The position numbers and the translations under genes are program-made. Source: an uncultured bacterium (lineage in GTDB: Bacteria; Eisenbacteria; RBG-16-71-46; DASYSL01). From it: a DNA stretch of 47,535 nucleotides. Of this stretch, positions 16,039 through 47,535 are shown piece after piece (positions within the stretch are counted from its first letter, which is position 1; every line of letters starts with the position of its first letter). The stretch is from contig CAYLSO010000258.1 in assembly GCA_964386525.1 (NCBI GenBank), positions 1 through 47,535 on the forward strand, written 5' to 3'. The notes under the pieces are model-generated. The model was not told where the DNA came from, searched no databases, and worked only from the letters and a program-made list of their open reading frames with translations.

Positions 16039-16872
16039 CTACTCCTCCACCCCCATCTTGTCTTCCTCCACCTCGGCGGCCCGGGGCTCGTCCATCTCCA
16101 CCTCCCCCTTGGCGCGGTGCCCGGGGTCGCGGCGATAGATGACTCCGAGCATGATGTTCGGGGTCTGGGTCATGCGCACCGCCGCCAGCAGGTCGGACGG
16201 GTCGTGGTCGGGCGGGATCAGCTCGCAGCGCTCGTAGAGCAGCTTCGCGTAGGCCGGCGTTTGGTAGGTCACGCACGCCGCCAGCACGTGCACGAAGGCG
16301 AAGCCCGGATAGGCGATGGCCTCGCGGAAGATCTCGCGCATGTGCGGCAGGTTGCCGGCGTGGGTGCGGGCCACGAAGCCGCAGCCGGTGCCGAGCATGA
16401 ACAGGACGGGCTTCAGCGGCCGCTCGTCCTCCCCCGCCAGCCCGCGCTCGTGCTTGAACTCCGGGTCGGTGGTGGGCGAGGCCTGCCCCTTGGTCAGCCC
16501 GTAGATGCCGTTGTCGAGGACGGCGTACATCATGTCGAGGTTGCGCCGCGCGGCGTGCGGGATGTGGCCGACCCCGATCGAGAAGCCGTCGCCGTCTCCC
16601 CCCACGATCACGGTCGTCATGTCGGGCTTGGCCGCCTTGATGCCGGTCGCGATCGGCAGGGCGCGCCCGTGGACCGAGTTGAAGGCGTAGGAGTTGGTGT
16701 AGCCCGGCAGCCGGCTCGAGCAGCCGATGCCCGAGATCATCGCCAGCTTCTCCGGCGGCACCTGGAGGTCGGCCAGCGCCTGGGTGAGCCCCTTGAGCAC
16801 GCCGTAGTCGCCGCAGCCGGAACACCACACCGGCTTCAGGGTGGAACGGAAGTCCTTCGCGGATACGGTCAT
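16039..16872 (-). CDS. korB: 2-oxoacid:ferredoxin oxidoreductase, beta (TPP-binding) subunit
   Basis: MTVSAKDFRSTLKPVWCSGCGDYGVLKGL...GIGCSSRLPGY...VGGDGDGFSIG is the KorB/OorB pattern. The ATG overlaps the korA stop (ATGA at 16869-16872). Confidence 0.9.
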   Translation of the reverse strand: MTVSAKDFRSTLKPVWCSGCGDYGVLKGLTQALADLQVPPEKLAMISGIGCSSRLPGYTNSYAFNSVHGRALPIATGIKAAKPDMTTVIVGGDGDGFSIGVGHIPHAARRNLDMMYAVLDNGIYGLTKGQASPTTDPEFKHERGLAGEDERPLKPVLFMLGTGCGFVARTHAGNLPHMREIFREAIAYPGFAFVHVLAACVTYQTPAYAKLLYERCELIPPDHDPSDLLAAVRMTQTPNIMLGVIYRRDPGHRAKGEVEMDEPRAAEVEEDKMGVEE

Positions 16873-18626: not shown

Positions 18627-18630
18627 AGGG

Positions 18631-19506
18631 TCAGGCCTCCACGACGGCCGCCGCGGGGGCGGCCTCGGGCTGGGGTGGCTGGCCGATGCGGTGCATGATC
18701 GTGCTGGGACAGATGTCCACGCAGGCTTCGTTGCACGACGGACCGTAGGCCAGGCACTTCTCGTGATCGATCCGGATCGTCGTCCCGTCCCAGGCGATGG
18801 CCCCGGCCGGGCACTTGGCGACGCAGCGACGGCAGATCGTGCAGCCCACCATGCAGGTGGGCCGGACGGTCGACTTGTTGTCCCGCGCCACGCAAGACAG
18901 CTCGATGCGGCGGTCGCGCGGGTAGAGCTCGAAGAGCTCCTTGGGGCACGACGGCACGCACAGGCCGCAGCCGGTGCACTTGGCGTTGTCCACCTCCGCG
19001 ATGCCCGAGGCGCCGACGTGCAGCGCGTCGAAGGGGCAGACCTGGACGCAATCGCCGAGCCCCAGGCAGCCGTTCTTGCACGCCTTGGGCCCCCCGAACA
19101 CCAGCGAGGCGGCCGCGCAGGTCCGCACGCCGCGGTACTCCGCCTCGTCGCGGGCGTAAGCGCTGGTGCCGTGGCAGCGCATGACCACCAGCCGGTCCGG
19201 CACCGCGCCCACGGCCTTGTCGGTCAGCTCGCCGAGCGCCTTGGCCACCGCGCCGCGCCCCGGCGTGCACAGATTGGTAGGCACGTCGGCGCGCTCCACC
19301 ACCGCCTCGGCGTAGACCTGGCAGCCGGCGAAGCCGCAGGCGCCGCAGTTGGCCGAGGGCAGTTGGTCGCGCACCGCCTCGACCACCGGGTTCACCGGCA
19401 CCTTGAAGCGCAGCGCCGCCGCGGCCAGGGCAAAGCCGAAGAAGACCCCGAGCAGCGTCAGGACCGCGAAGCCCCAGAGGGCGATGGCGAGAGTCTGCTG
19501 GTCCAA
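18631..19506 (-). CDS. rnfB: Rnf complex subunit B (polyferredoxin-type Fe-S protein with N-terminal membrane anchor)
   Basis: An N-terminal TM helix is followed by LPSANCGACGFAGC. Several CxxCxxCxxxCP ferredoxin motifs follow (CLGLGDCVQVCP, CTGCGLCVPSCP, CTICRRCVAKCP). The start codon is apparently TTG. Confidence 0.85.
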   Translation of the reverse strand: MDQQTLAIALWGFAVLTLLGVFFGFALAAAALRFKVPVNPVVEAVRDQLPSANCGACGFAGCQVYAEAVVERADVPTNLCTPGRGAVAKALGELTDKAVGAVPDRLVVMRCHGTSAYARDEAEYRGVRTCAAASLVFGGPKACKNGCLGLGDCVQVCPFDALHVGASGIAEVDNAKCTGCGLCVPSCPKELFELYPRDRRIELSCVARDNKSTVRPTCMVGCTICRRCVAKCPAGAIAWDGTTIRIDHEKCLAYGPSCNEACVDICPSTIMHRIGQPPQPEAAPAAAVVEA

Positions 19507-19515
19507 GTCCGTCCC

Positions 19516-20451
19516 CTAGCGGAAGGGGTTCAGCCCCGCGAAACCCATGAACGCGAGGGCGAACAGGCCGGTCAGCGCGAACGCGATGGGCAGGCCCTCG
19601 AAGCTCTTGGGGACCCGCGCCAGCTCGGCCTTCTCGCGCGCGCACGACATCAGGAACAGGGCGATGGCGAACCCCGCGCCCGACCCCACGGCCAGAGCCA
19701 GGGCCTCCCAGGGCCCGGCGTTGGCCGAAGCGTTGAGCAGCGGCACCGCCAGGATGATGCAGTTCGTGGTGATCAGCATCAAGTAGATGCCGAACTTCTG
19801 GTGCAGCAAGCGGTTGAGCTTCTTGAGCACGGTGTCCACCAGCTGCACCAGGAAGGCGACGATGCCGATGAACACCAGCACCTGCAGGAAGCGCAGGTCG
19901 AGCGGGCTCAGCACGTACGTGTAGATGGCCCACGACAGCATGGCGCTGGCCACCATGACCACCGTGAAGGTGATCCCCATGCCGATGGAGGTGTCCTGCC
20001 GCTTGGACACGCCGAAGAACACGCACAGCCCGAGGTAGCGCGTGAACACGAAGTTGTTGATCAGCGACGCCGACAGCACCACCGAGAGCAGCAGCGCCCA
20101 GGCGGCGGGCTTGACCTCGCGCACGGCCCGCGGGCGGTGGATCTCGAGCCGGTAGTGGTTCTGCGGGCTCACCGTCTGCGCCAGCGTGAGCCACAGCTTG
20201 CCGTCCGGCCGCACCGTGACCTCCGTCACCTCCATGGCCACGTCCGGCGCCAGCGCCTCGGTGACGCGGAAGTTGCCCGGCGACAGGTCGGCCACCGGCT
20301 GGCCCAGCTGCACCAGCACGTGGTGGGGCGCCAGCATGCGGGCGTTCTCGATCACCGGCGCGGCGGCCGCCGCGGCCCCCCCGGCCCACAGCGCCGCCAC
20401 GGCGGCCGCCAGGGCGCCGGCGGCCGCCCGCGTCCGCATCCGCCTAGCCAT
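19516..20451 (-). CDS. rnfA: Rnf complex subunit A with a ~113-aa N-terminal exported extension
   Basis: The C-terminal ~195 aa (LLLSVVLSASLINNFVFTRYLGLCVFFGVS...TNCIILAVPL...) is canonical RnfA/NqrE. The N-terminal part (MARRMRTRAAAGALAAAVAALWAGGAAAAAAP...) has a signal/anchor followed by a beta-rich segment. A strong GGAGGAGGGG RBS precedes ATG 20451. Confidence 0.85.
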   Translation of the reverse strand: MARRMRTRAAAGALAAAVAALWAGGAAAAAAPVIENARMLAPHHVLVQLGQPVADLSPGNFRVTEALAPDVAMEVTEVTVRPDGKLWLTLAQTVSPQNHYRLEIHRPRAVREVKPAAWALLLSVVLSASLINNFVFTRYLGLCVFFGVSKRQDTSIGMGITFTVVMVASAMLSWAIYTYVLSPLDLRFLQVLVFIGIVAFLVQLVDTVLKKLNRLLHQKFGIYLMLITTNCIILAVPLLNASANAGPWEALALAVGSGAGFAIALFLMSCAREKAELARVPKSFEGLPIAFALTGLFALAFMGFAGLNPFR

Positions 20452-21109
20452 GCGCCCCTCCTCCCCCGCCGGGCCGCCGGGCCGCGCCGCCGGACAGGCG
20501 CCGCTCGACCAAGTTGAAGAACGCCATGAGCAGCGCGATCGAGAAGAACCCGCCGGCCGGCAGGATGAAGAACAGGAGCGGCTTGTGCGGCAGGAGGGCG
20601 TGCCCGGCGATGGCGCCGCCGCCCAGCAGCTCGCGGAAGGCGCCGATCACGACCAGCGCGAACAGGAAGCCGAGACCCATGCCGAGGCCGTCGAAGAAGG
20701 TCGGCACCAGCGGTTGCTTGGAGGCGAACAGCTCGAGGCGCGAGATGATGATGGCGAAGGCCACGATGAGCTTCACGTAGAGGCCGACCTGCGCGTACAG
20801 CGCCGGGAAGAACGCCGCCAGCACCATGTCGATGCAGCTCACCCACACGGCGATGATGATGGTGTAGACCGGGATGCGCACCCGCGGGTGGATGCTGCGC
20901 CGGACCAGCGCCACGCTGACGCTCGACAGCACTTGCACCACCAGCACCGCCACGCCCAGGATGAGGCCGTTCATCACCGTGGTGGTGACGGCCACCGCCG
21001 GGCACAGCGACAGCGCCAGCCGGAACACCGGGTTCTCGGCGAAGATGCCGTTGAGCAGCAGCCGGCCGGCGCCGGGCGCCGGGGGCCGCGGGACGGCGGC
21101 GGTGCTCAT
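20444..21109 (-). CDS. rnfE: Rnf complex subunit E
   Basis: LLLNGIFAENPVFRLALSLCPAVAVTTTVMNGL... is the RnfE/NqrD pattern. The ATG overlaps the rnfG stop (ATGA at 21106-21109) and a GGAGAG RBS is present. Confidence 0.9.
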   Translation of the reverse strand: MSTAAVPRPPAPGAGRLLLNGIFAENPVFRLALSLCPAVAVTTTVMNGLILGVAVLVVQVLSSVSVALVRRSIHPRVRIPVYTIIIAVWVSCIDMVLAAFFPALYAQVGLYVKLIVAFAIIISRLELFASKQPLVPTFFDGLGMGLGFLFALVVIGAFRELLGGGAIAGHALLPHKPLLFFILPAGGFFSIALLMAFFNLVERRLSGGAARRPGGGGGAHG

Positions 21110-21975
21110 GGCTTCTCTCCCAGCAGCGGAGAGACCAGCGACCAGCGGTAGCGGAAGCGGTTCACGGTGCTGCGCACCCCCATGGTGAGGGCCCGACTCG
21201 AGATGGTGGCGCCGGTGACGGCGTACACCGGCTGGACGCTCTCGCGCTCCAGGAGCCCGCCGTAGCGCGAGCGCCATTGCGCCGGCGGCAGGCGCTGCAG
21301 CTCGAGCAGGGCGGCCCGCCAGTCCTCGGGCATGGGGTCCTTGGTCACGTCCAGCGTGCTGGCGCCCTCGGCCGTGCGGCCGAAGTATTGCCCCTGAAAC
21401 CACGGGGCGGCGATCTCGGCGCCCAGCCCCGGGTCCTCCTCGTGCTCGATGACCCGCACCCCGAGGATGTCGAAGGCGGCGTCGAGGGCCACGAAGAAGC
21501 GCACGATGTTCTTGTAGCCGCGCGTCTCGCCCTCGATGACGAAACCGGTGGTGGAGTCGCCCTGCATGGCCACGAAGATGCGGCCCAGCGGCTTGAGCCC
21601 CTCCTCGGCCTCGCCGCCGCGCAGCCCGGCGCGGGCCCGCCCGAGCAGCTGGCCGCTCAGCGCGAAGGTCAGCTCGGTGCCGGTCTCGGCGCCCCTGGGC
21701 GCGGCGCGATAGACCACCTGGTCGCGCGCCGGGTCGAGGTACTGGCGGATCTCGACGACGCTGGCGTCGGGGCCGAGGCGCAGCAGCTGCGCGATGGAGC
21801 GGTGCTCGGAAGCGGCGCGCGCCACCTCCTGGTAGCGGTTGGTGGCCACGTAGGTGGCGCCCAGGATGGCCCCGCCGAGGGCGCAGTAGAGCGTCACCGA
21901 GCCGGCGATGCGCAGGATCTCGCCCAGCGGCCGGCCCTCGCCGCGCGGCGCCGGTGCGGCGGTCGGACGGTTCAC
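21106..21975 (-). CDS. rnfG: Rnf complex subunit G (FMN-binding)
   Basis: A TM anchor is followed by an FMN_bind-like domain with the flavinylation motif AVTGATISSRA. The GTG start overlaps the rnfD stop (GTGA at 21972-21975). At 289 aa it is longer than typical RnfG. Confidence 0.8.
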   Translation of the reverse strand: MNRPTAAPAPRGEGRPLGEILRIAGSVTLYCALGGAILGATYVATNRYQEVARAASEHRSIAQLLRLGPDASVVEIRQYLDPARDQVVYRAAPRGAETGTELTFALSGQLLGRARAGLRGGEAEEGLKPLGRIFVAMQGDSTTGFVIEGETRGYKNIVRFFVALDAAFDILGVRVIEHEEDPGLGAEIAAPWFQGQYFGRTAEGASTLDVTKDPMPEDWRAALLELQRLPPAQWRSRYGGLLERESVQPVYAVTGATISSRALTMGVRSTVNRFRYRWSLVSPLLGEKP

Positions 21976-22952
21976 GACGGCACCCCCACGGGCATGGTGC
22001 GCGGCGGCCGGAACCAGTTGTTGAGCGCCGGCGTCAGCGTGTTGCCGATGAGGATGGCGTAGCAGATGCCCTCGGGGTAGCCGCCGTAGACCCGGATCAG
22101 GCCGGTGAGCACCCCGACCACCAAGCCGAAGACGATCTGACCGTTGCGGGTCTTGGGCGAGGTGACGTAGTCGGTGGCCATGAAGAAGGCCCCGAGCCAC
22201 AGCCCGCCGCTCAGCAGGTGCAGGGCGCTGGCGCCGGTGAACGAGGTCACCAGGGCGACGCCGCCGATGACGCTCAGCGGGATGGTGGGCTTGATGATGT
22301 CGCGGATCAGAAGCACCAGCGCCCCCAGCCCCAGCATGGCCACCGAGACCTCGCCGATGGAGCCCGGGCGCAGGCCCATGATGAGGCTCACGTAGGGGCC
22401 GCCGGGCCCGCTCAGCAGCTGCATCGCCTTCTCCGGCCCCTGCTCGCGCAGCACCACCAGCGGCGTCGCCGTGGTCACCGCCTGCAGCTTGTCGCCGTAC
22501 CAGAGGCGCGGCCAGGCCCAACCGGTGGTCATGACCACCGGGAAGGTGGCGAGCATGAAGGCGCGCCCGATCATCGCCGGGTTGAAGAGGTTGTAGCCCA
22601 GGCCGCCGAAGATCATCTTGCCGAAGACGACGGCGAACGCCCCGCCGAGGGCCGCCTGCCAGGGGGCCACCAGCGGGGGCAGCGTCAGGGCCAGCAGCAA
22701 TCCGGTGCAGAACGCGCTGCCGTCGCGCAGCGAGCTGCGCGCCTTCATGGCCCGCGCCGCCAACCACTCCCCGATCAGGGCCCCGGCGACGGAGCCCACG
22801 ATCACCCACGCGGCGCGAGGGCCGAAGAGGAAAATCCCCCAGGCGCTGGCCGGCAGCAGCGCGCCGTTCACCCACCACATGATCTCCGCGGTGGAGGCCC
22901 CGGCGCGCACGTGCGGGCCCGGGGCGACGACGAAGCGGCGCTCCTCGCTCAT
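21972..22952 (-). CDS. rnfD: Rnf complex subunit D
   Basis: MSEERRFVVAPGPHVRAG...FNPAMIGRAF...GAFFMATDYVTSP... is the RnfD/NqrB pattern. The ATG overlaps the rnfC stop (ATGA at 22949-22952). Confidence 0.9.
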   Translation of the reverse strand: MSEERRFVVAPGPHVRAGASTAEIMWWVNGALLPASAWGIFLFGPRAAWVIVGSVAGALIGEWLAARAMKARSSLRDGSAFCTGLLLALTLPPLVAPWQAALGGAFAVVFGKMIFGGLGYNLFNPAMIGRAFMLATFPVVMTTGWAWPRLWYGDKLQAVTTATPLVVLREQGPEKAMQLLSGPGGPYVSLIMGLRPGSIGEVSVAMLGLGALVLLIRDIIKPTIPLSVIGGVALVTSFTGASALHLLSGGLWLGAFFMATDYVTSPKTRNGQIVFGLVVGVLTGLIRVYGGYPEGICYAILIGNTLTPALNNWFRPPRTMPVGVPS

Positions 22953-24298
22953 CCGGCCTTCACCTGGCGGGCCCGGCGCAGCGCCGACTTGGCGATCTGC
23001 ATGAACTGCAGGAGCGGGCGCTCCGCCGGGCAGACGTAGGTGCAGCAGCCGCACTCGTAGCAGTCGGTCGCGCCGAACGGGTCGGTGTCCAGGGTGCGCC
23101 CCGCCTCGACCCGCACCGACACCGCGTCGGGCTCGAGGCCGAGCGGGCACGCCTCGATGCATCGCCCGCACTGGATGCAGGGGTGGTAGCCCCCCTCGAG
23201 GGGGCCAGCGCCGGTGAGCAGCGTCAGCCCGTTCATGCCCTTGAGCAGCGGCAGGTCGAGGCGCGGCAGCGCCCGCCCCATCATCGGGCCGCCGGCCACC
23301 AGGCGGGTGGTGCCGTCGGCCATGCCGCCGCAGAAGCTCACCAGCTGGCTGAGCGGCGTGCCGAGCGGGGCGAGGACGTTCTTGGGGTCCAGGATGCCCG
23401 GGCCGGTGACCGTGATGACGCGGTCGAGCAGCGGCCGGCGGTAGCGCACCGCCTCGTACACCGCCTGTGCCGTGGCCACGTTCTGCACCAGAACGCCCAC
23501 CGCCAGCGGCAGGGCCCGCGCCGGCACCACGCGGCCGGTGAGCGAGGTCACCAGCTGGCGCTCGGCCCCCTGCGGGTAGCGCACCTCGCAGGGCACGACC
23601 TCCACGGGGAGGCCGCCGGGGATCTCCGCCGCGGCGCGCTCGAGCGGCTCTCTGGCCTCGAGCTTGTCGGCCTCGATGCCGATGAGCACGCGCCCGCCGC
23701 CGGTCAGCCGCGCCATGAGGCGCGCGCCCTCCACGACCTCGAGCGGGTGGGCGAGCATGGTGCGGAAGTCGGCGGTCAGGAACGGCTCGCACTCCGAGCC
23801 GTTGATGACCACGGTGTCGACGGTCGTGCCCTCGGGCAGGGCGAGCTTGCGGAAGGTCGGGAACGCCGCCCCACCGAGGCCGACGATGCCGGCCTCGCGG
23901 ATGCGCGCCAGCATCTCGTCGCGCGGGCAGTCGCGCCAGAGCGGGTCTCCGGGGAACGCCAGCGGCGGCGGGGCGTCGGCCGCCGCTTCGATCACCATCA
24001 TGGGCGCGTTGACGAGCGTCGGATGCGGGCGTTTCACCGTCGGCTTGACCCGCCCCGAAAGGCTGGCGTGCACCGGCACGCCGCCGGGGCCGGCCTCGGC
24101 GACCTTCTGGCCGCGCGCCACCAGGTCGCCCTTCTTGACGATCTCGGTGGCGGTGGCGCCGAAGCTCTCCACCAGGGGAAGCCACACCTCGCGCGGCGGC
24201 GGCACGAGCGGCTCGATGGGCTTGTGCGCGGTGCGCTCCTTGCCCGAATCGACGTGGACCCCGCCCTTGCCGAAGCTCCGCAGCTGGATGGCCTGCAT
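22949..24298 (-). CDS. rnfC: Rnf complex subunit C (NADH-binding, 2x[4Fe-4S])
   Basis: GIVGLGGAAFPTFRK and INGSECEPFLTAD are present, along with the two cluster motifs CIQCGRCIEACP and CYECGCCTYVCP. The start MQAIQL lies 5 nt after the apbE stop. Confidence 0.9.
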   Translation of the reverse strand: MQAIQLRSFGKGGVHVDSGKERTAHKPIEPLVPPPREVWLPLVESFGATATEIVKKGDLVARGQKVAEAGPGGVPVHASLSGRVKPTVKRPHPTLVNAPMMVIEAAADAPPPLAFPGDPLWRDCPRDEMLARIREAGIVGLGGAAFPTFRKLALPEGTTVDTVVINGSECEPFLTADFRTMLAHPLEVVEGARLMARLTGGGRVLIGIEADKLEAREPLERAAAEIPGGLPVEVVPCEVRYPQGAERQLVTSLTGRVVPARALPLAVGVLVQNVATAQAVYEAVRYRRPLLDRVITVTGPGILDPKNVLAPLGTPLSQLVSFCGGMADGTTRLVAGGPMMGRALPRLDLPLLKGMNGLTLLTGAGPLEGGYHPCIQCGRCIEACPLGLEPDAVSVRVEAGRTLDTDPFGATDCYECGCCTYVCPAERPLLQFMQIAKSALRRARQVKAG

Positions 24299-30583: not shown

Positions 30584-31438
30584 ATGTTCAGCAGGACGAA
30601 ATCGGAGACCACGCCGGCCGGGCGCCGGGCGGCGCCGGACGGCGGACCCGGCTGGGCCGCGGGCCTGCCGGCCTGGCTGCGCCCGGGCCGGCGCTGGATC
30701 CTGCCCGGCGCCATCGCCGCCGTCCTGCTCGCCGTTGCGCTGCCGCTGTGGCTGCTGCAGGCGCGGGTGTCGGCCCTGCGCGAGTTTCGCGCCGCGGCGC
30801 CGGGCTGGATCTACCCCTCGCACGTCTACTCCGACTGGATCGACCTCGATGCGCGCCACGACCTGCCGCGCGGCTACCTCGAGGCCTCCCTCCTGGCGCG
30901 CGGCTACCACCCCGCCGGCCGCCCGCTGGCCGAGCCCGGCACCTTCGCCGCCGTCGGCGGCGGGCTCGAGGTCTACCTGCGCGCCTTCGCCTATCCCGAG
31001 AGCCTCTGCCGCCCGGCGCGCGTCCGGCTGGAGTTCGCCAAGGGCCGGCTGAGCCGCGTGCTCGTCGGGCGCGGCGGCCTCCGCGCCCCGCGCCTCGAGC
31101 CGGTGCTGCTGCGCGTCTACTCCTCGACCGAAAATCCGGTGGAGCGGACCTTCGTGCGCCTCGAGGAGATCCCGCCGGCCGTGCGGGCCGCGCTGGTCTC
31201 GGCCGAGGACCGCCGCTTCTTCCAGCATCTGGGCGTAGACGTGCGCGGCACCGGCCGCGCCCTCTACCACAACGTGCGCGGGGGCGGCGGGCTGCAGGGC
31301 GGGAGCACGCTGACGCAGCAGCTGGCCCGCAGCCTGTTCCTGAGCCGCCGCCGCTCGTTGGGCCGCAAGCTCGAGGAGTCGGCGCTCGCCGTCGGGCTCG
31401 AGCTGGTGCTGCGCAAGCGCGACATCCTCGAGATGTAA
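30584..31438 (+). pseudogene. class A penicillin-binding protein, N-terminal fragment (TM anchor + most of the GT51 transglycosylase), ended by an in-frame TAA
   Basis: The GT51 motifs EDRRFFQHLGVD, GGSTLTQQLAR and RKLEESALAVGLE are present. KRDILEM-TAA-LNSVYLG follows, with the stop sitting where the conserved Tyr of ILExYLN belongs. The start at 30584 is uncertain; ATG 30512 is an alternative. Confidence 0.75.
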
Positions 31439-33058
31439 CTGAACTCCGTCTACCTGGGCAACGCCGGCCCGGTCGAGATCGGCGGCGTGTCCGAGGGGGC
31501 GCGCTACTTCTTCGACAAGTCCGTGCACGAGCTGACCCTGCCCGAGGCCGCGCTGCTGATCGGCGTGATCCCGGCGCCCAACCTGTACTCGCCCTTCCGG
31601 AGTCCGAAGCTGGCCCTGGCGCGGCGCAACCAGGTGTTGCGGGACATGGTGGAGGCCGGCCGTCTCGACTCGACCGTGGCGCGGCGCGCCATGGCCGCCC
31701 CGCTGACCCCGCGCCGCGGCCGCGCCCGGCCGGTGCTCTTCCCGTTCTTCACCGACTACGCGGTGGCCGAGCTGGGCCGGCACCTGCCGCCCGGAGACCT
31801 CGAGTCGCGCGGACTGCGCGTCTTCACCACGCTCGATCCCGTCTGGCAGTCGCGCGCCGAGACGCAGCTGGCGCTGGGGGTAGCCGACGTCGAGCGCTGG
31901 TACGGGCGGCGAGGCCCGCAGCCTCTGGAGGGCGCGGCCTGCCTGCTCGAGCCCGGCAGCGGCCGCGTGCGCGCCCTGGTCGGCGGCCGCGACTACCGCC
32001 GCAGCCCCTTCAACCGGGCCACCCAGTCGCTGCGCCAGCCGGGCTCCGCCTTCAAGCCGATCATCTACGCCGCGGCCTTCGATCGCCACTGGCGGGACAA
32101 GGACTTCTCCGCGGCCACCACCGTGCCCGACCTGCCGCGCGAGTTCCCGACACCGGAGGGCCCGTGGCGGCCGCGCAACGACGACGGCACCTACCACGAG
32201 CGCGTCACGCTCGCCCGGGCGCTGGCCAAGTCGCTCAACGTGGCCACCGCCAACCTCACCGAACGCATCGGCCCGCGCACCGTCGCCCAGTACGCCGCGC
32301 GGCTCGGCCTGGGCGGCGTGCGCCCGGTGATCAGCATCGGGCTGGGCACCAGCGAGGTCACGCCGGCGCAGCTCGCCGCCGTCTTCGCCACGCTGCAGAA
32401 CGACGGCGTGCGCGTCGAGCCGCAGCCCCTGCGGCTGGCGGTGGCGGCCGGCGGGCGCGTCGAGTTCCGCCCCGCCCCGCCGCACGAGCGCGTCTTCCAG
32501 GCGACGGCCGCGCGGCTCACCGTGCAGCTCCTGCGCGGCGTCGTGGACTTCGGCACCGCCTACTCGCTCAAGAGCCAGTGCGGTTTCTTCCGGCCCGCGG
32601 CCGGCAAGACCGGCACCACCGACGACTACAAGGACGCCTGGTTCGTGGGCTTCACCCCGGACGTGCTGTGCGCCGTGTGGCTCGGCTACGACCAGCCGAC
32701 CCCGCTCGGCGACACCGCGGCCGGCACGGCGGTGCCGGTGTGGGCCCGGATCGTGGCGGCGGTGCTCGCCGAGTTCCCGCCGCGCCCCCTGCCCGAGCCC
32801 GCCGAGTTCGAGTTCGCGCTCATCGACCCGTACTCCGGCGGCCTCGCGACCCCCTACTGCCCGTCGCGGATGCGCGCCGCCTTCCTGCGCGGCACGGCCC
32901 CGGCGCGCGTCTGCGGGGCCGATCACAGCGCCGAATGGATGGTCGGCCCGCTGCTGGAGGACGCGGCGGCCGAGTCGCTCACCGTCGTCGAATCCGGCGG
33001 TAGCGCCGACAGCCTGTCGGCGGGCCCGCCGGCCCCCGCCGCCCCGCCGGCGCCGTAA
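31439..33058 (+). pseudogene. class A penicillin-binding protein, C-terminal fragment (end of GT51 + transpeptidase), same frame as 30584..31438
   Basis: It continues LNSVYLGNAGPVEIGGVSEGARYFF...LPEAALLIGVIPAPNLYSP. The transpeptidase motifs are SAFK (GSAFKPIIYAAAF), SLN and KTGTT. The first possible restart codon is GTG at 31487. Confidence 0.75.
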
Positions 33059-33973: not shown

Positions 33974-34110
33974 CGCACAGGGGCGCGGCGCCTGAGGACC
34001 TCCTCCCTCGGCGCGCGCCCCGACTCTTTGCGGCGACCTTGCCGGCGGCCCCGCGCCGGCGGGGCACCGCGCCTTGCCCCCGAGACCCTTCCGCCGCTAG
34101 GCTCCGCCCC

Positions 34111-36882
34111 GTGAACCCATCGACCTCTCCGCTTACCAATCCCTACGAGCCGGCCGGCGATTTCGCGGCCGAAGCCGCCGCCCTCGACGCCGGGCGCCTC
34201 GAGGAACTCGACGCCTGGGCCGCCGGCATGGCCCGCCATCCGCAGGGCGGCGAGTGGCACAAGCGCGGCGAGCGGCGGCTGGCCGAAAACCAGGCCGGAG
34301 CGCAGGCCCAGTACGCGCACGCCGCGCTGCTGGAGGCGCAGGGCGAGCGGGCCGAGGCGGCGCGGCTCCTGGTGGGCTTGTGCGAGCGCCTGGCGCAGGC
34401 CGCGGCCTGGCCGGCGGTCGCACTCGTGGCCCGCCGCGCCCTGCGTGCCGAGGCCGGGCCGCCCGCGGCCCGCTGGCTGGTGCACGCCGCCGACGAGACC
34501 GGCGGCGAGGACGAGCGCTTCGAGGCGCTGATCGAGGCCCACGAGGCCGCCCCCGGAGAGGCCCGTCTGGCGTGGCGCCTCTCCCGCCAGTACGAGGCGC
34601 GTGGCGAGCGCGAGAGCGCTCTCGACGCCACCGGCCGCGCCCTCGACGCGCTCGCCCGCCGGCACGACGCCGAGGGCATGGAGGAAGCCCTTCTCAGCCT
34701 GCTCGACGAGAGCGATCCCGCCTACCTGCGGTTGGCGCTGCCGCCGCTGCCGCTGTTCGCCAAGGGCGGCGAGGCGGAGCGCGTGGCGGGCTTCCTCGAG
34801 CTCTCCTGGCCGGCCCTGCGCGCCGCGGGACTGGCGGGCGCGACCTGGCAGACGCTGCGCGCCATGCTGCTCGACCTGGCCGAGCCGGGCGGCCTCGTGG
34901 CGCTGGTGCCCGAGGTGGTCGAGGCCGCCCTGCCCCAGGGAGCCGCCGCTCGCGCCCTGCTCGAGGACGCCGGCTACGGCGCCGATCCCGCGGCATCGTG
35001 GCTGCCGCTCTTCGAGCGCCTGCTGCCGTTCGTGCCGGGTGCCTACGCGGAGCACGGCTCGTGGGGCGTCGGCCGCGTCTCGAGCTTGACGCGCGAGGAG
35101 GTCTGGATCGATTTCCCCGGCCGCCCCGGCCACCGCATGACCCTGCGCGGTGCGCACCAGGCACTCGTCCCGCTCGACCCCGAGGACCTCGCGGTGCTCG
35201 CCGCGTGGCAGGCCGACCGGCTGGCGGAGCTGCGCGCCGCCGACCCCGTGGACCTGATCGTGCGAGCCCTGCGGCGGCTGGGCGGCGACGCCGCCGGCGC
35301 CGATCTCAAGAAGTTGCTCGTGCGCTACGCCGTACCGGAGACGGAGTGGACCGCCTTCTGGAACGCCGCCCGTTCCCGCCTCCCCGCCGACCCGCGGGTC
35401 GACGGCAGCGCGGCTTATCGCGGCCGCTACCGGCTCATCGCGGCAGGGCCGGGAGCGCCCGCCGGCGCCATCGAGCCGGCAGTGCCGCTGCCCCGCTTCG
35501 ACCGCGGCGCCGACGCGCGCCAGGTGCTGACCACGCTGCGCCGGTTCCTCGCGCAGCATCCGGACGAGGCGGTGCGGCTGGCGCAGGAGCGCGGCTCCGT
35601 GCTGCGCGCCTGGCGCGACGACCCGGCGCTGGCATGGCGCGAGCGCGTCGGGGCCCTGCTCGTGCTCGCCATCGTCGCCGACGCGGAATCGGCGGCCGCC
35701 GCGCCCGCCGTGCTGGCGCGCGCCCTGGCCGACGGCTTCGATCCGCGCGAGCTGCCTTCGGGGCCGGAGCAGCGGCAGACCATCGAGTGGGGCCTGGCCT
35801 CGGCCGAGTGGGAGGCCGCGGTGCGCTCCGGCATCGCCGCGCGCTTCACCGACGTCAAGGATCTCGCCTTCGAGAGCCTCCTGGCGCGCCTGGGCGAGGG
35901 CGCCGGCGGGTTCCTCACCACCCTGGCCCGTCGCGCCGTGGAGTGGCCCGACGCCGCGCTGGCCGTCCTCGAGCGCGCGTACGGCGTCCGCGCCCCGGCG
36001 CGGGGCGCCGGCGCGGGCCCCGGCGGCTTCCCGGCCCTGGATCCGTGGGAGTCGGCGTGCGGCCTCGCGGAGCTGCTCGAGAGCGGGCCCGGGCCACAGC
36101 GCGTGAAAGCCGGGCTGCCCCTGCTCGCCACCGACGGGCCGCTGGCGCTCGCCGCCGCCGCGGCCGTCCCCGGCGCCGAGACGCGGGCCCGCATCGAGCG
36201 GCTGCTGCTCGGCTGGCGCGGCAGCGACCGCTCGCTGCTCCCCTTCCTCGAATGGGCGGAGACCGCCGGACTGGCCGACTTCGCGGCCCGAGTGCGGGAG
36301 AAGCGCCACATGGCCGCCCGCGCCATCACCGCCAACAGCGGCAAGGTGGAAGCGCACGAGCTGCCCCGTATCTTCCTGACGCGGGCGACGCTGCTACGCC
36401 TGCGGCGCGAGGCCAAGGGCCTCGACCAGGCGCTGCGCGGCGAGATCCCGGTCGCCATCCAGAAGGCACGCGAGCTGGGAGACCTGCGCGAAAACGCCGA
36501 GTACGAATCGGCGAAGCTCAAGCAGCGGCAGACGCAGGCGCGGCTCGCCCAGCTCGGGGCCAGGCTCGCCAACGTCTCGGTCATCGACGATCTCGACCGC
36601 CCGCCCGGCGTCGCCGGCCTCGGCACCGAGGTCGAGCTCGAACTGCCGGACGGCGGCTCGCGGCGCCTCTGGATCCTGGGCGAGGGCGACGACCGGCTCG
36701 GCCCCGAGGTGGTCTCCTACCTCGCCCCGCTCGGCCGCGCGCTGCTCGGCAAGCGCCCCGGCGACGCGGTGGAGCTGCCCGGCGACGGCGCGGCGCACTC
36801 GGCCGTCGTGCGCGCCGTGCGGCCGCGCTTGCCCGAGCCCGGCGATCCGGCGGCGGGCAGCGCCGCGCCGACCGCGGCGTGA
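34111..36882 (+). CDS. large GreA/GreB-family protein (~920 aa) with long N-terminal extension
   Basis: The last ~160 aa are GreA-like: LTRATLLRLRREAKGLDQALRGEIPVAIQKARELGDLRENAEYESAKLKQRQ..., followed by an FKBP-like C-domain (VSYLAPLGRALLGKRPGDAVELP). The N-terminal ~750 aa are helical-repeat-like, with a CarD/TRCF-RID-like stretch (HGSWGVGRVSSLTREEVWIDFPG). The start is uncertain: GTG 34111 or TTG 34039. Confidence 0.7.
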   Translation: MNPSTSPLTNPYEPAGDFAAEAAALDAGRLEELDAWAAGMARHPQGGEWHKRGERRLAENQAGAQAQYAHAALLEAQGERAEAARLLVGLCERLAQAAAWPAVALVARRALRAEAGPPAARWLVHAADETGGEDERFEALIEAHEAAPGEARLAWRLSRQYEARGERESALDATGRALDALARRHDAEGMEEALLSLLDESDPAYLRLALPPLPLFAKGGEAERVAGFLELSWPALRAAGLAGATWQTLRAMLLDLAEPGGLVALVPEVVEAALPQGAAARALLEDAGYGADPAASWLPLFERLLPFVPGAYAEHGSWGVGRVSSLTREEVWIDFPGRPGHRMTLRGAHQALVPLDPEDLAVLAAWQADRLAELRAADPVDLIVRALRRLGGDAAGADLKKLLVRYAVPETEWTAFWNAARSRLPADPRVDGSAAYRGRYRLIAAGPGAPAGAIEPAVPLPRFDRGADARQVLTTLRRFLAQHPDEAVRLAQERGSVLRAWRDDPALAWRERVGALLVLAIVADAESAAAAPAVLARALADGFDPRELPSGPEQRQTIEWGLASAEWEAAVRSGIAARFTDVKDLAFESLLARLGEGAGGFLTTLARRAVEWPDAALAVLERAYGVRAPARGAGAGPGGFPALDPWESACGLAELLESGPGPQRVKAGLPLLATDGPLALAAAAAVPGAETRARIERLLLGWRGSDRSLLPFLEWAETAGLADFAARVREKRHMAARAITANSGKVEAHELPRIFLTRATLLRLRREAKGLDQALRGEIPVAIQKARELGDLRENAEYESAKLKQRQTQARLAQLGARLANVSVIDDLDRPPGVAGLGTEVELELPDGGSRRLWILGEGDDRLGPEVVSYLAPLGRALLGKRPGDAVELPGDGAAHSAVVRAVRPRLPEPGDPAAGSAAPTAA

Positions 36883-40573: not shown

Positions 40574-42649
40574 TCAGCGGGCAGCCGGCGCGGCCGGGCG
40601 CAGCAGGGCGGCCAGAGCGGCGAGCGAGGTCAGGGTGAGCCAGGAATGGGCGAGCGCCAGGCCGCCCAGCGCCCGCGAGAAGGCCGGCGGCAGGATCGCC
40701 GCGGCGAGCAGCACCACGGCAGCGGCGGCCGGCCGACTGCCGCGTTGTGAGCGCGCGATGAGGACCACCAGCGGCAGGTAGAGCACCGCGAAGTGGACGG
40801 TCCAGGAGCCCGGCGAGGTGAGGAGCAGGGCGAGGGCCGCACCGGCCCACAGGTCGGCCCAGGCGGCGCGGCCTGAGCCCTCTGCGTCCCCCGCCGCCCG
40901 CGCCCTTCGCGCCAGGAGCCAGACCGCGCCGAGGACGAGCAGATCGAGGACCACCTCGACGCTGCGCGCCGCCGATGCGCCGAGCGCCAAGGTGGGCACG
41001 GCCCGCACGCCGGCGGTGTGGACCTCGGCGCCGCCGACGTAGCGGTCCACCAGGCCGCGCAGCGACTGGTTGTCCGCCCGGCCCAGGGAGAGATCGCCCG
41101 GGCGCGGCGCCGCCTCGCGCAGGAATCCCAGTCCGGCGCCCGGCGCGAGGCGCTCGAGTGTGGCCGCCGAGGCCAGCGTGAGTGCGGCCGCGGCCGCCAG
41201 CGCCGGTAGCGCCCAGCGCAGGCGGCCGGCGAGCAGGGCGGCCACCGGGGCCCAGACCGGGGTGGCCTTGACCGCGATCCCGCCCACCGCGGCGGCTCCG
41301 GCCGGCCCGCCGCGGCCGGCGGCCACCGCCGCGGCCACCGCGAGCAGCAAGACGAGCACGAGCGTGTTCGTGTTGCCGTACTGCAGGTCCATCGCGACGA
41401 GGCGGCCGGCCACCCACAGGGCGAGCCACTCGGGGTGCGCCCACCAGGGACGCGAGCGCCCGGCGGTCGTGCCGGCCGCGACGCGCGGCGACAGCCCCCG
41501 CCGGGCCAGCGGCACGCACCACGCCGCCGCCACCACCTTGAGTCCGAACCACGCGAAGGCGGCCACGCCGAGCGGCACCCACGGCAGGAGCCCGCACGCC
41601 AGAACGAAGGGCGGTGGGTTGAGGACGCGCTCGGGAGTCAGGGCGTAGGGACTCACCCCGGCCCACAGCGCCAGGCCGGCGGTGTCGTAGACCTTGAAAT
41701 CGCTGCGCGGGCCGAGGGTCACCACGGCGAAGCGCACGCCGAGCAGCGCCAGCGGCAGCGTCCACGCAGTCCACGCGCGGCGGCGCACCAGGGCGCTCCA
41801 GGCGCCGGCGCAGACCGCCGCCCCTGCCAGCGGCAGCAGGGCGAGTCCGAGCGCCGAGAGACCCAGCGGGGCCTCCCAGCGCCAGCCGCTACGCCCGGGC
41901 ATGAGCGTCCACAGCGGGCCGATCCCTTGCGCATCGGGGATCCACGACATGGCCGCGTCGAGGCACCACAGGGCGCCGCCGGCCAGGGCGTAGGCGGCCA
42001 GCCCCGCCGCCGTCGAGGAGGCGGGACCGCGGGGTGCGGCCGGCCCGCCGCGCCGCTCCCGGGCTCGGGCCCAGGCGGCGGCCGCCGCGCCGGCCGCCGC
42101 GCACGCGGCGAGGGCGAGGCCGAGGCGCGCGAGGAAAGCCCAGAACCGACCTGCGTACGGCCAGGCGCGCGCCGCGGCGTCCCACACGGCCCATTCGCTC
42201 GCCACCTCGACGCGCGCGAGCCGCAGCGCCGAGCCGCTCGCCCCGTCTTTCCAGACCACGCGCCGTGTCTCAGCCTCGCGGGCACGGAAGGTGAACTGGT
42301 AGGTGCGCTCGCCGCTCCGCGCCAGATCGAGCGGCCGCAGCGCGAGGGCCTCGGGGTGCCACGGCCGCCCCTGCGGCACGATGCCGAACCACGCCGCGGC
42401 GGCGGCGGCGGGCCCGCGCGCAACCACGCCGCGCGCCACGGTCAGACGGCAGCGGAGCCGCTCCCCCGGCCGCACCTCGATCGCCGGCCCCCAGCGCAAG
42501 CCGGCGGAATCGGGGGTTGAAAGGAACGGCGAGCCGATGACCCGCGGGGACTCGAGCCGCATGCCGGCCACCGCCAACGCCAGGGCGGCGACGGCGGCGC
42601 CGGTCAGGATCCAGCGGCGACGGGACTTCGATTCACGGGGTTCGGTCAT
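40574..42649 (-). CDS. polytopic GT-C type membrane glycosyltransferase (DUF2029/GT87-like) with ~180-aa N-terminal extracytoplasmic domain
   Basis: There are many predicted TM helices. The SDFKVYDTAGLALWAGVSPY motif resembles the DUF2029 catalytic-loop region. The N-terminal part follows a single TM anchor. Confidence 0.55.
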   Translation of the reverse strand: MTEPRESKSRRRWILTGAAVAALALAVAGMRLESPRVIGSPFLSTPDSAGLRWGPAIEVRPGERLRCRLTVARGVVARGPAAAAAAWFGIVPQGRPWHPEALALRPLDLARSGERTYQFTFRAREAETRRVVWKDGASGSALRLARVEVASEWAVWDAAARAWPYAGRFWAFLARLGLALAACAAAGAAAAAWARARERRGGPAAPRGPASSTAAGLAAYALAGGALWCLDAAMSWIPDAQGIGPLWTLMPGRSGWRWEAPLGLSALGLALLPLAGAAVCAGAWSALVRRRAWTAWTLPLALLGVRFAVVTLGPRSDFKVYDTAGLALWAGVSPYALTPERVLNPPPFVLACGLLPWVPLGVAAFAWFGLKVVAAAWCVPLARRGLSPRVAAGTTAGRSRPWWAHPEWLALWVAGRLVAMDLQYGNTNTLVLVLLLAVAAAVAAGRGGPAGAAAVGGIAVKATPVWAPVAALLAGRLRWALPALAAAAALTLASAATLERLAPGAGLGFLREAAPRPGDLSLGRADNQSLRGLVDRYVGGAEVHTAGVRAVPTLALGASAARSVEVVLDLLVLGAVWLLARRARAAGDAEGSGRAAWADLWAGAALALLLTSPGSWTVHFAVLYLPLVVLIARSQRGSRPAAAAVVLLAAAILPPAFSRALGGLALAHSWLTLTSLAALAALLRPAAPAAR

Positions 42650-42716: not shown

Positions 42717-43673
42717 TCAGCAGCAGGCGCTCGGGGAGCCGGGCGCGGGCCGCGCCGCAGCGCCCCCCGTCACGCACACGTCCGGCACCACCGGCCGCCG
42801 GCCGGAGAGCACCTGCCACCAGCGCACGCCGGCCTCCACCAGGACCAGGGCCATGCAGGTCATCATGATCGCAGTGAGGGTCGCGTTGAGGCCGCCCTGG
42901 AAGGCCTGGCCCGGATCTCCAGCGGTGAGCCTGGGCAAGTAGTTGTCGCGGATGGACAGGAAACCGGCGGTCTGCGTGATGGCCGTCACGCCGACCAGCG
43001 GCACCGCGGTCACCCACGCGTAGCGCGCGCCCCCCGAGTTGATCAGAATCGTGGTGCCGACGGTGAGCGCCACGCCCGCCAGCAGCTGGTTGGCGATGCC
43101 GAACATCGGCCAGATGGTGCTGATCGAGCCGGTGAGGATGAAGTACGTCCAGCCGCCGCATACCAGCAGGCTGGCGACCGCCGCGCCCGGAAGCCAGTCG
43201 GTGCGCCCGAGCGGCTTGTGCACGCGCCCGGCCTCCTCTTGCAGGATGAAGCGCGCCACGCGCGTGCCGGCGTCGATGGTCGTGAGGATGAAGAGCGCCT
43301 CGAACATGATGGCGAAGTGGTGCCAGTAGCCCATCAGACCGCGCATGCCGGGGATGCCCGAGAAGATCTGCGCCATGCCCACGGCCAGCGACACCGCCCC
43401 GCCGGTGCGCCCGGCCAGCGTCTCCCCCACCTCGGCCTGCAGCTCCGCCAGGTTCACCGGCACGAGCCCCAGGGCGGCGAACTTCTCCGGCGTCACGTTG
43501 ATGGCGAAGTAGTCGGCCGGGTGCAGCGAGGTGGCGTCGATGAGCGCCATGACGCCGACCACGCCCTCGCACAGCATGGCGCCGAAGCCGATCGGCCGCG
43601 CGTCGCTCTCGCGGTCCAGCATCTTGGGCGTGGTGCCCGAGCCGACCAGCGAGTGGAAGCCCGAGATGGCCCC
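42717..43673 (-). CDS. cstA: carbon starvation protein CstA, C-terminal part (in frame with 43674..44582, downstream of an in-frame TGA)
   Basis: It reads [34 protein letters not shown]...[26 protein letters not shown]...[14 protein letters not shown], colinear with E. coli CstA. The track ORF begins at the internal Met at 43622. Confidence 0.85.
43620..43668 (-). other. stem-loop immediately downstream of the cstA in-frame UGA (candidate SECIS-like element)
   Basis: The outer stem pairs CAUCUCGGGC with GCCCAAGAUG (one mismatch). The inner stem closes a GGUC tetraloop at 43647-43644, which is 27-30 nt after the UGA. It was folded by eye only, and GC-rich RNA forms hairpins easily. Confidence 0.3.
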
Positions 43674-44582
43674 TCAGGCGATGGTGATGAAGAGGAAGGG
43701 GAAGAGCGGCCCCGGGACGATCGGCCCGCCGCCGGCGGCGTACTCGGTCACCGCCGGCATCTTGAGTACGGGGTTCACCAGGCAGACGCCGAGCGCCAGC
43801 AAGGCGATGGTGCCGAGCTTCATGTAGGTCGAGAGGTAGTCGCGAGGGGCCAGCAGCAGCCACACCAGCAGCACCGAGGCCACGAAACCGTAGGCCGCCA
43901 TGGCCAGGGTGAGCTGCGTCTTGCCGAGGGTGAAGACGGCGCCGAGCGGCGTCTGCGGGATCCAGCGGCCGAGGATCACGCAGGCCATCATCGCGAGCAC
44001 CCCGGCCACCGTGGCCTCGGCGACGCGGCCGGGCCGCAGGCGGTGCATCCACAGCCCCATCGCCACCGCGATGGGGATCGACATGGCGACGGTGAACGTG
44101 CCCCACGAGGACTCGCGCAGGGCGTTGACCACCGCCAGCCCGAGGCCGGCCAGGGCGATGACCACGATGAACAGGATGGCGACGGCGGCGAGGACGTAGG
44201 CGCGCGGCGAGATCTCGCTGCGCGCGAGCTCGGCCAGGGAGCGGCCGTCGCGCCGCGTGCTGGCCACCAGGATGGTGAAGTCGTGCACGGCGCCGGCCAC
44301 CACCACGCCGACGACCAGCCAGGCGAGGCCGCGGAAGCAGCCGAACTGCGCCGCCAGCACCGGCCCGATGAGCGGCCCGGCCCCGGTGATGGCCGCGAAG
44401 TGGTGCCCGAAGAGCACCCAGCGACCGGTCGGGTAGTAGTTCTGGCCGTCGTAGAGGCGGTGCGCCGCGGTGCGGCGCGCGTCGTCGAGCACGAGCACCC
44501 GGGCCGCCAGGAAGGCGCTGTAGTAGCGGTAGGCCAGGGTGAGGACTGCGGCCACCACGAGGACCACGAAGAGGCCGCTCAC
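43674..44582 (-). CDS. cstA: carbon starvation protein CstA, N-terminal part ending at an in-frame TGA (43674-43676) that replaces the conserved Cys
   Basis: The start is GTG with GGAGGA 8 nt upstream. VLFGHHFAAITGAGPLIGPVLAAQFG...LLLAPRDYLSTYMKLGT...LFPFLFITIA-TGA matches E. coli ...FPFLFITIACGAVSGFH. Confidence 0.85.
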   Translation of the reverse strand: MSGLFVVLVVAAVLTLAYRYYSAFLAARVLVLDDARRTAAHRLYDGQNYYPTGRWVLFGHHFAAITGAGPLIGPVLAAQFGCFRGLAWLVVGVVVAGAVHDFTILVASTRRDGRSLAELARSEISPRAYVLAAVAILFIVVIALAGLGLAVVNALRESSWGTFTVAMSIPIAVAMGLWMHRLRPGRVAEATVAGVLAMMACVILGRWIPQTPLGAVFTLGKTQLTLAMAAYGFVASVLLVWLLLAPRDYLSTYMKLGTIALLALGVCLVNPVLKMPAVTEYAAGGGPIVPGPLFPFLFITIA

Positions 44583-46339: not shown

Positions 46340-47476
46340 CTACGCCGCCAGCCGCGAGCTGCGGTTGGGCTCCGGCTCGCGGTCCGCCCGCGGTGCGCGC
46401 TCGGCCGCCCGCCGCGCCTGCTGCGCGTCGGGGTGCAGGTCGCCGTAGCCGCGAAAGAGATGCACGGCGGCGTCGGTGACCTCGGGGTCGAACTGCGTGC
46501 CGCGGTTCGTGAGCAGCTCTTCCTGGATGCGCGAATAGGGCAGCGCCGGGCGGTACGGACGCTGCACCGACATGGCGTCCAGCGCGTCGGCCACGGCCAC
46601 GATGCGCGCCGCCCGTGGCAGTTGGGTGCCGCGCAGGCCGAGCGGGTAGCCGTGGCCGTCGTAGCGCTCGTGGTGGCCGACGATGCACTCGGCGGCGGTG
46701 CGCAGGAAGGGCAGGTCGCGCACGATGCCGAAGCCGACGCGCGGGTGGCTGCGCATCACCCGCCACTCCTCGGCGGTGAGCGGCCCCGGCTTGAGCAGGA
46801 CCGAGTCCGGGATGCCGATCTTGCCGAGGTCGTGCAGCAGCGCGCCGTGGAAGATCTTCTGCTTGTGGCGCTCGGGCAGCTGCATCACGTCGGCCAGCCG
46901 CAGCGCGTACTCGGCGACGCGCTTCGAGTGGCGCTGGGTCTCGCCCTCGCGCGCGTCCAGCGCGGCCACCAGCGACTCGAGCGCCAGGCGGTAGGCGCGC
47001 CCGGCGCGGCGCAGCGAGCGGCGCAGCTCGCGCGCCCGCTCGCGCATCTCGCGCTCCAGGGCGGCCCGCAGCTCGCCGTTCTCGTGGCGCAGGCGCGCCC
47101 GCTCCAGCGCTCGGCGGACCGCCAGCTGCAGGTCCTCGGGACAGCGGTCGCGCCGCAGGACGTCGTCGGCGGCGTCGGGGACGGCGGCCTGGGCCAGAGC
47201 GGCGTCCTCGGGGGCGGCCACGAGCACCAGGCCGGGCTGCGGCCACTCCTCGCGCAGGCGCGGCGCCAGGGGAGCGCCGGCCCCGTCGCGGAGCCGCAGG
47301 TCGCAGAGCACGGCATCGTACGGCGTGCCCCGCAGCGCGGCGAGCGCCTCCTCGGCGTCGCCGGCGCCGCGCGCCGCGTAGCCGTCGAGGCTGAGCAGGC
47401 CCACCACGCGCTCGCGCTGCGGGGTCTCGCGGTCGGCGACCAGGATGCGGCGGCTGTGGAAGCTGGCGAAGTGCAC
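46340..47476 (-). CDS. response regulator with HD-GYP output domain (c-di-GMP phosphodiesterase type)
   Basis: The receiver domain reads RILVADRE...YDAVLCDLRL. The HD-GYP domain reads HSKRVAEYA...LLHDLGKIGIP...GHHERYDGHGYPLGL. The frame stays open upstream of the GTG to the window edge, so the true start may lie outside the window. Confidence 0.8.
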   Translation of the reverse strand: MHFASFHSRRILVADRETPQRERVVGLLSLDGYAARGAGDAEEALAALRGTPYDAVLCDLRLRDGAGAPLAPRLREEWPQPGLVLVAAPEDAALAQAAVPDAADDVLRRDRCPEDLQLAVRRALERARLRHENGELRAALEREMRERARELRRSLRRAGRAYRLALESLVAALDAREGETQRHSKRVAEYALRLADVMQLPERHKQKIFHGALLHDLGKIGIPDSVLLKPGPLTAEEWRVMRSHPRVGFGIVRDLPFLRTAAECIVGHHERYDGHGYPLGLRGTQLPRAARIVAVADALDAMSVQRPYRPALPYSRIQEELLTNRGTQFDPEVTDAAVHLFRGYGDLHPDAQQARRAAERAPRADREPEPNRSSRLAA

Positions 47477-47535
47477 GGTCTCCCCCGATGCCGGACCCCC
47501 CGCCGGGGAGAAGGCCTCCGCGGGGCGGTCCGCAG

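Follow-up and report, generated by a model that had tools for sequence, protein, structure and literature searches.

Does an in-frame UGA on the conserved cysteine of a CstA-family transporter specify selenocysteine (Sec), or does it end translation? The question is raised by a 47,535-nucleotide contig from an uncultured bacterium, the whole of which is called the window here. Selenoproteins are classically recognized by a UGA where homologs have Cys. The preliminary description of this DNA had offered two readings, a selenocysteine candidate served by a downstream hairpin or a fresh nonsense mutation. We find that the TGA is very probably a one-step TGC-to-TGA nonsense mutation in an allele of cstA on which selection has ceased, in one strain lineage of this uncultured, high-GC bacterium. 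The locus has the following features.

44582..42717, minus strand: very probable pseudogene allele of cstA, a CstA/BtsT-family transporter gene (621 codons plus stop; PF02554, with intact orthologs).

43676..43674, minus strand: premature stop TGA at codon 303 (TGC in six ENA contigs; TGA in the window and in contigs L013 to L016).

43620..43668, minus strand: SECIS-like hairpin proposed earlier (pairing possible, but not the favored fold, not above background, and unchanged in Cys alleles).

As first described, the open reading frames (ORFs) at 43674..44582 and 42717..43622 form a single minus-strand frame of 1866 nt, whose sole interruption is the TGA at 43676..43674. The gene is colinear with intact 621-aa orthologs. 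It has no frameshift and no second stop, and the frame beyond the UGA is open as far as the normal C-terminus. Pointers to the taxonomy are the high GC content, FlgD_ig/LTD-domain proteins, and the best CstA matches, which are found in Zixibacteria, Bacteroidota, and Ignavibacteria, at 66 to 68% identity. Both halves match the Pfam CstA profile (PF02554), the N-terminal 302 codons over profile positions 2 to 303 (E = 8.6e-113) and the next 318 codons over positions 305 to 560 of 560 (E = 2e-81). The profile is thus matched over the whole domain, and the stop fills one profile position. That this position is the conserved Cys also proved correct: in an alignment of 118 diverse homologs, 109 of the 110 sequences that cover the column have Cys. 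A search by sequence found no relative in the PDB. Genome-wide reassignment of TGA is excluded, because TGA is the ordinary stop of many window genes, cstA itself included.

CstA and BtsT are pyruvate/peptide:H+ symporters (PMC7730263, PMC5847655). The window gene resembles members of this family (TC 2.A.114, PF02554) in its full-length colinearity, and its intact sister alleles are typical members. Intact members have an uninterrupted ORF and keep the family-invariant residues, whereas the window allele is truncated at codon 303 and is mutated at five invariant positions. The window clade also differs from the family in that its proteins are short (621 aa) and end in Cys-Cys. This C-terminus reads ...PSACC in the window lineage (42720-42725, minus strand) and ...TYGCC in the lineage of contig L001, which is 66% identical (7849-7854). 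It resembles the Arg-Cys-Cys end of the DUF466 partners (YbdD/YjiX) of E. coli CstA/BtsT and the Cys-Sec end of a Campylobacter homolog; the small DUF466 partners are described as ending in Cys-Cys, or in Cys-Sec in Campylobacter (bioRxiv 10.1101/2022.07.06.499078). The Cys-Cys tail had no Pfam match even at E ≤ 10, and no DUF466 match was found in the neighbors of cstA (a 97-aa ORF and GT87).

Near-identical alleles of the same locus carry both codons. Clusters of the two ORF halves at 90% identity contained four 302-aa fragments, all ending in ...FITIA, together with several full-length 621-aa proteins that have Cys303 and read ...FITIACGAISGFH.... Codon 303 is TGC in six ENA contigs (L007 to L012) and TGA in the window and in four JGI contigs (L013 to L016). 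These four were assembled independently from four samples (3300036980, 3300036982, 3300037041, and 3300037468). Locus order (CAP/FlgD_ig gene, 97-aa ORF, cstA, GT87) is syntenic in TGC and TGA contigs, and the intact gene is syntenic in L007 to L012 and in L017 and L018. Intact alleles dominate the ENA samples.

The window and the intact alleles are separated by 23 to 25 differences over 1866 nt (98.7 to 98.8% DNA identity). Codon 303 changes from TGC (Cys) to TGA by a single C-to-A substitution (G to T on the plus strand; C909A of the gene). This is the sole difference between the window and the intact alleles across gene nt 739 to 1045, with 170 nt upstream and 136 nt downstream identical. 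The ancestral state of codon 303 is TGC. Furthermore, because the downstream sequence is identical in the TGC alleles, nothing evolved together with the UGA. The TGA is common to several contigs, and its alleles have come to differ by up to 13 nt, which rules out a read error. That the allele persisted long enough to diversify counts against the pseudogene reading. It also qualifies the description of the mutation as fresh: the stop is a nonsense mutation, but one that is not especially recent, having diverged by up to 13 nt across the window and the four JGI contigs.

Other variation was seen around the locus. The spacer between cstA and GT87 is indel-polymorphic: the window (at about 42704) does not have 32 nt that are present in L017 just downstream of the cstA stop, and the spacer is 16 nt shorter in L010 and L011 than in L007. 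Over 7.4 kb, L014, whose cstA is identical to that of the window, shows one indel against the window. The GT87 gene of L014 (3797-7380, equivalent to window 40574-42649) was called in fragments only (170 aa), pointing to a frameshift in that gene. A response-regulator/HD-domain gene at about 46340-47525 of the window (minus strand) has a pS of 0.26 and 50 amino-acid changes against L008, where all its neighbors have a pS of about 0.01 to 0.04. The contig end seems to carry a segment that has recombined or is hypervariable.

Missense changes bear on whether cstA is decaying. Compared with intact cstA, the window has 13 nonsynonymous differences (12 missense plus the stop) and 11 synonymous differences. 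The resulting pN/pS is 0.44. In a comparison of neighboring genes over 22.7 kb at 98.8% identity, most had values of 0.07 to 0.33, and one small hypothetical gene reached 0.62. The excess of cstA over its neighbors is not significant alone (Fisher p = 0.12), and the argument for decay therefore rests on which residues changed. The 13:11 ratio is below the strictly neutral expectation, and some of the divergence probably arose before inactivation or through recombination.

Invariance was judged on columns covered by 38 to 118 diverse homologs, with 29% of assessable columns being invariant. Five of the nine assessable missense changes fall on family-invariant columns, against 2.6 expected without selection and about 0 under purifying selection; this placement fits an absence of selection. 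These five, with one accompanying change, are as follows.

44466..44468, minus strand: P39A, replacing a Pro kept by all 115 homologs that cover it; confined to the window, L014, and L015.

44331..44338, minus strand: Y82C (44338-44336) and P84R (44333-44331), in the conserved motif FG[YF]xPG, both present in all TGA-lineage alleles (all 118 homologs have Pro at 84, and 114 of the 118 have an aromatic residue at 82).

43866..43868, minus strand: P239L, in an invariant LPVW motif (Pro in all 118 homologs); shared by the window and L016, absent from L013.

43536..43538, minus strand: A349D, which introduces a charge where all 83 homologs have Ala.

43320..43322, minus strand: Y421H, in an invariant 10-residue motif (Tyr in all 38 homologs).

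Two of the five, A349D and Y421H, come after the UGA. With five invariant columns changed, the gene does not bear the mark of purifying selection, and this includes the part 3' of the UGA. The earlier remark that both halves show no other lesion is thus right for stops and frameshifts, but it overlooks the 12 missense changes, of which 5 strike residues that are invariant in the family. Counting the stop, changes relative to the intact allele number 8 in L013, 11 in L016 (which has 450 codons on its contig), and 13 in the window. Judged from these alleles, changes build up stepwise in the TGA lineage.

We propose the following course of events. One C-to-A substitution would have turned TGC into TGA in cstA, and translation would then stop at codon 303 to leave a 302-aa N-terminal transporter fragment. 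The allele, now without function, would drift in one strain lineage while missense changes gather at invariant residues. The downstream ORF would still look coding-like only because a divergence of about 1.3% is too recent to have erased its codon bias. No full-length CstA product would be expected from the TGA allele.

In all of this, the window gene resembles a unitary bacterial pseudogene of the kind produced by nonsense mutation and strain-level decay. It has a single-step premature stop where near-identical relatives have intact alleles at the same locus; constraint appears to have been lost at conserved residues; and another inactivating allele, a deletion, occurs in the same population. 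We see nothing material that sets it apart, and the stop mimics the Sec signature by the coincidence of falling on a Cys codon.

The deletion allele comes from two further JGI samples.

L023 20-1057 and L024 1552-2589: deleted cstA allele (window equivalent 44374..43547 deleted).

The deletion is in frame, spans 828 nt (gene nt 209-1036), and is flanked by 9-nt direct repeats (CGCTCATCG). Codons 70 to 345 are lost, codon 303 included. As read from these contigs, it is a second cstA knockout, of independent origin, at this locus and within the metagenome series that also contains the TGA lineage.

Two independent loss-of-function alleles in one metagenome series, the TGA lineage and the 828-nt deletion, invite a more specific version of the pseudogene reading, in which cstA inactivation was positively selected, for example, by closing an entry route for a toxin or phage. 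Adaptive loss would explain the recurrent knockouts, and the five changes at invariant sites, against 2.6 expected under neutrality, point the same way. However, this excess is not significant (p = 0.09), relaxed selection alone accounts for the data, and the ENA samples are dominated by intact alleles. We regard adaptive loss as unlikely, if still worth considering.

Nonsense mutation is also seen elsewhere in the window. The preliminary description had counted two other disrupted genes; one of them was confirmed.

30584-33058, plus strand: PBP1, a class A penicillin-binding protein gene (UB2H, transglycosylase, and transpeptidase domains), split by a TAA.

The TAA at 31436-31438 replaces TAC at codon 285; L017, which is 98.8% identical, has TAC (Tyr285). 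The PBP1 ortholog is intact at 824 aa, the other cluster members are all 824 aa, and the truncated form occurs in the window contig only. Because TAA cannot encode Sec, the window lineage demonstrably carries plain nonsense mutations. The PBP1 stop may be genuine, hitting a gene that normally matters, or may stem from misassembly. The second disrupted gene was not found by Pfam scans of candidate ORFs over 1-33 kb, in which only PBP1 is split and Rnf, POR, kinase, peptidase, cytochrome, and other genes are intact.

Two further gene arrangements were noted in the window. At 16039-24298 (minus strand), a pyruvate:ferredoxin oxidoreductase gene pair adjoins a complete Rnf cluster (RnfC, D, G, E, A, and B) and ApbE, all seemingly intact. 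Thus, cstA, a likely pyruvate importer, would be lost in a genome that keeps its pyruvate-oxidizing machinery. At 34079-36850 (plus strand), an unusually long protein of 923 aa combines HTH_GRAD with the GreA/GreB N- and C-terminal domains, and it is kept in all relatives.

The TGA allele might alternatively retain some function, either through low-level near-cognate read-through of the UGA or through separate translation of the two halves, with re-initiation at the ATG at 43622, and their assembly. Long ORFs are kept in both halves, an ATG lies 17 codons past the stop, and the allele persists in the population. Nevertheless, a split protein would be without an invariant 17-residue segment, and the radical changes at invariant residues (P84R, P239L, A349D, and Y421H) argue that function is no longer selected. 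Residual function is, in our judgment, very improbable.

Under Sec recoding, SelB and tRNA-Sec would read the UGA as Sec, guided by the downstream hairpin, and a functional Sec-containing CstA would result. If true, this would be the first Sec-containing CstA-family transporter. The gene does share traits with bacterial selenoprotein genes (Sec-UGA plus bSECIS, e.g., E. coli fdhF): its in-frame UGA falls exactly on a near-invariant position at which homologs have Cys, and a GGUC-loop hairpin can be drawn within 16 to 37 nt of the UGA. The open frame as far as the normal C-terminus and the occurrence of the TGA allele in several samples also fit recoding. However, the nearest alleles carry TGC with identical flanks, and the hairpin sequence is unchanged in these Cys alleles; no SECIS evolved with the TGA.

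The pairings proposed earlier can indeed be drawn (43668-43659 with 43629-43620, with a GGUC loop at 43647-43644, 26 nt after the UGA), but they do not form the favored fold. This structure has a free energy of −11.7 kcal/mol. The 49 nt reach a minimum free energy (MFE) of −16.9 kcal/mol in a fold whose interior differs, and −14.3 kcal/mol when the GGUC loop is imposed. In a 71-nt context, the MFE structure uses other pairings and places the UGA itself within a stem. This fold has z = −1.7 against dinucleotide shuffles, with 11 of 200 shuffles folding at least as well.

We then scored the region against a bSECIS model (PMC13188914), using our own coding of the consensus, which is an implementation other than bSECISearch. 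The model asks for an apical loop of 3 to 9 nt, an upper stem of 4 to 16 bp, a G in the first two loop positions, a distance of 16 to 37 nt from the UGA, and an MFE of −7.5 kcal/mol or lower. Its strict form takes a contiguous upper stem of at least 4 bp, and its relaxed form allows bulges. The cstA UGA fails the strict model, having no contiguous upper stem of at least 4 bp, whereas 38 to 44% of controls pass (271 of 621 cstA codon positions and 572 of 1500 random window positions). Under the relaxed model, the cstA UGA passes at −10.1 kcal/mol, but so do 913 of the 1500 random positions (61%), and 48% of random window positions score equally well or better. Even the UAA of PBP1 has a "SECIS-like" hairpin, of −27 kcal/mol. 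Rfam gave no matches in the window at gathering thresholds, and at E ≤ 10 on 43560-43720 it gave no SECIS match and chance small RNA matches only. Given these control rates and the absence of an Rfam SECIS match, the hairpin is what chance gives in sequence of 73% GC.

For TGA-bearing cstA genes elsewhere, we scanned for the pattern T-[IV]-[AS]-TGA-G-A-[IV]-S-G-F-H, with counts that refer to the TGA form only. There was one match in 185,579 species genomes, a Lachnospiraceae MAG in which the motif lies near a contig end. Four matches were found in 241 million metagenome records, one being the same Lachnospiraceae contig. The metagenome matches and L001 (reached via protein P0005; 66% identical to the window protein) fall in unrelated CstA subfamilies. 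In the L001 lineage, the TGA is a singleton, with its siblings L020 to L022 carrying TGC. Within the first 560 codons, F301I and C308* are all that separates L001 from L020 and L022, and L021 adds one synonymous difference at codon 375. A 297-aa fragment from this lineage (P0209) was considered as a second TGA allele and rejected, being merely a gene cut by a contig end. A protein at 76% identity (P0002), which has odd sequence after FITIA, is a single read-derived fragment.

Among five TGA-bearing cstA genes (those of the window and L001, with L004, L005, and L006 from the metagenome scan), no shared structure was found in the 60 nt downstream of the stop; the consensus fold has −1.24 kcal/mol, with an unfavorable covariation term (a penalty). 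Unlike the UGA of selenoprotein genes such as fdhF, that of cstA is conserved in no clade, and orthologs do not share it with a Sec-specific SECIS.

Further observations weigh against recoding. The TGA lineage has other residues at five invariant positions, and in the deletion allele codon 303 is gone. As a symporter of pyruvate and peptides, CstA is no redox enzyme (PMC7730263, PMC5847655). Full-text literature searches turned up no description of a Sec-containing CstA; the closest connection was the Cys-Cys or, in Campylobacter, Cys-Sec end of the DUF466 partners. Points on the other side, which speak against the pseudogene reading, are the lack of a frameshift or second stop, the position of the UGA on a Cys codon, and the proposal of a selenoprotein permease in a different family of transporters (bioRxiv 10.1101/2022.07.06.499078). 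For the Sec machinery (selA, selB, selD, and tRNA-Sec), the analysis covered the 47.5-kb contig, which has no tRNA genes and no sel genes among its scanned ORFs. We consider Sec recoding scarcely credible. The same holds for the broader claim that the UGA at the invariant Cys is read as Sec or otherwise read through, with Cys and Sec alleles coexisting in one population, which we think has next to no chance of being right. An artefactual A in a single assembly is extremely unlikely as well: TGA is one base from TGC, the PBP1 TAA is seen in the window contig only, and the other TGA matches include a contig of 1.4x coverage (L006) and a contig-end case (L002), but the same TGA occurs in four independently assembled JGI contigs from four samples, and these contigs differ elsewhere.

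A nonsense mutation in a decaying cstA allele thus remains our reading. A strain-level nonsense pseudogene of a common transporter is of an ordinary kind, and biologically it is of little weight. The case does advise caution. TGC becomes TGA in one mutational step, and GC-rich coding RNA meets the bacterial SECIS consensus at roughly half of positions; therefore, a UGA at a Cys position with a drawable hairpin is weak evidence alone. Comparison of near-identical alleles settles such Sec-or-nonsense cases fast. Ecologically, there is a small point to add: with two knockout alleles of independent origin, this population seems able to do without cstA or to be losing it.
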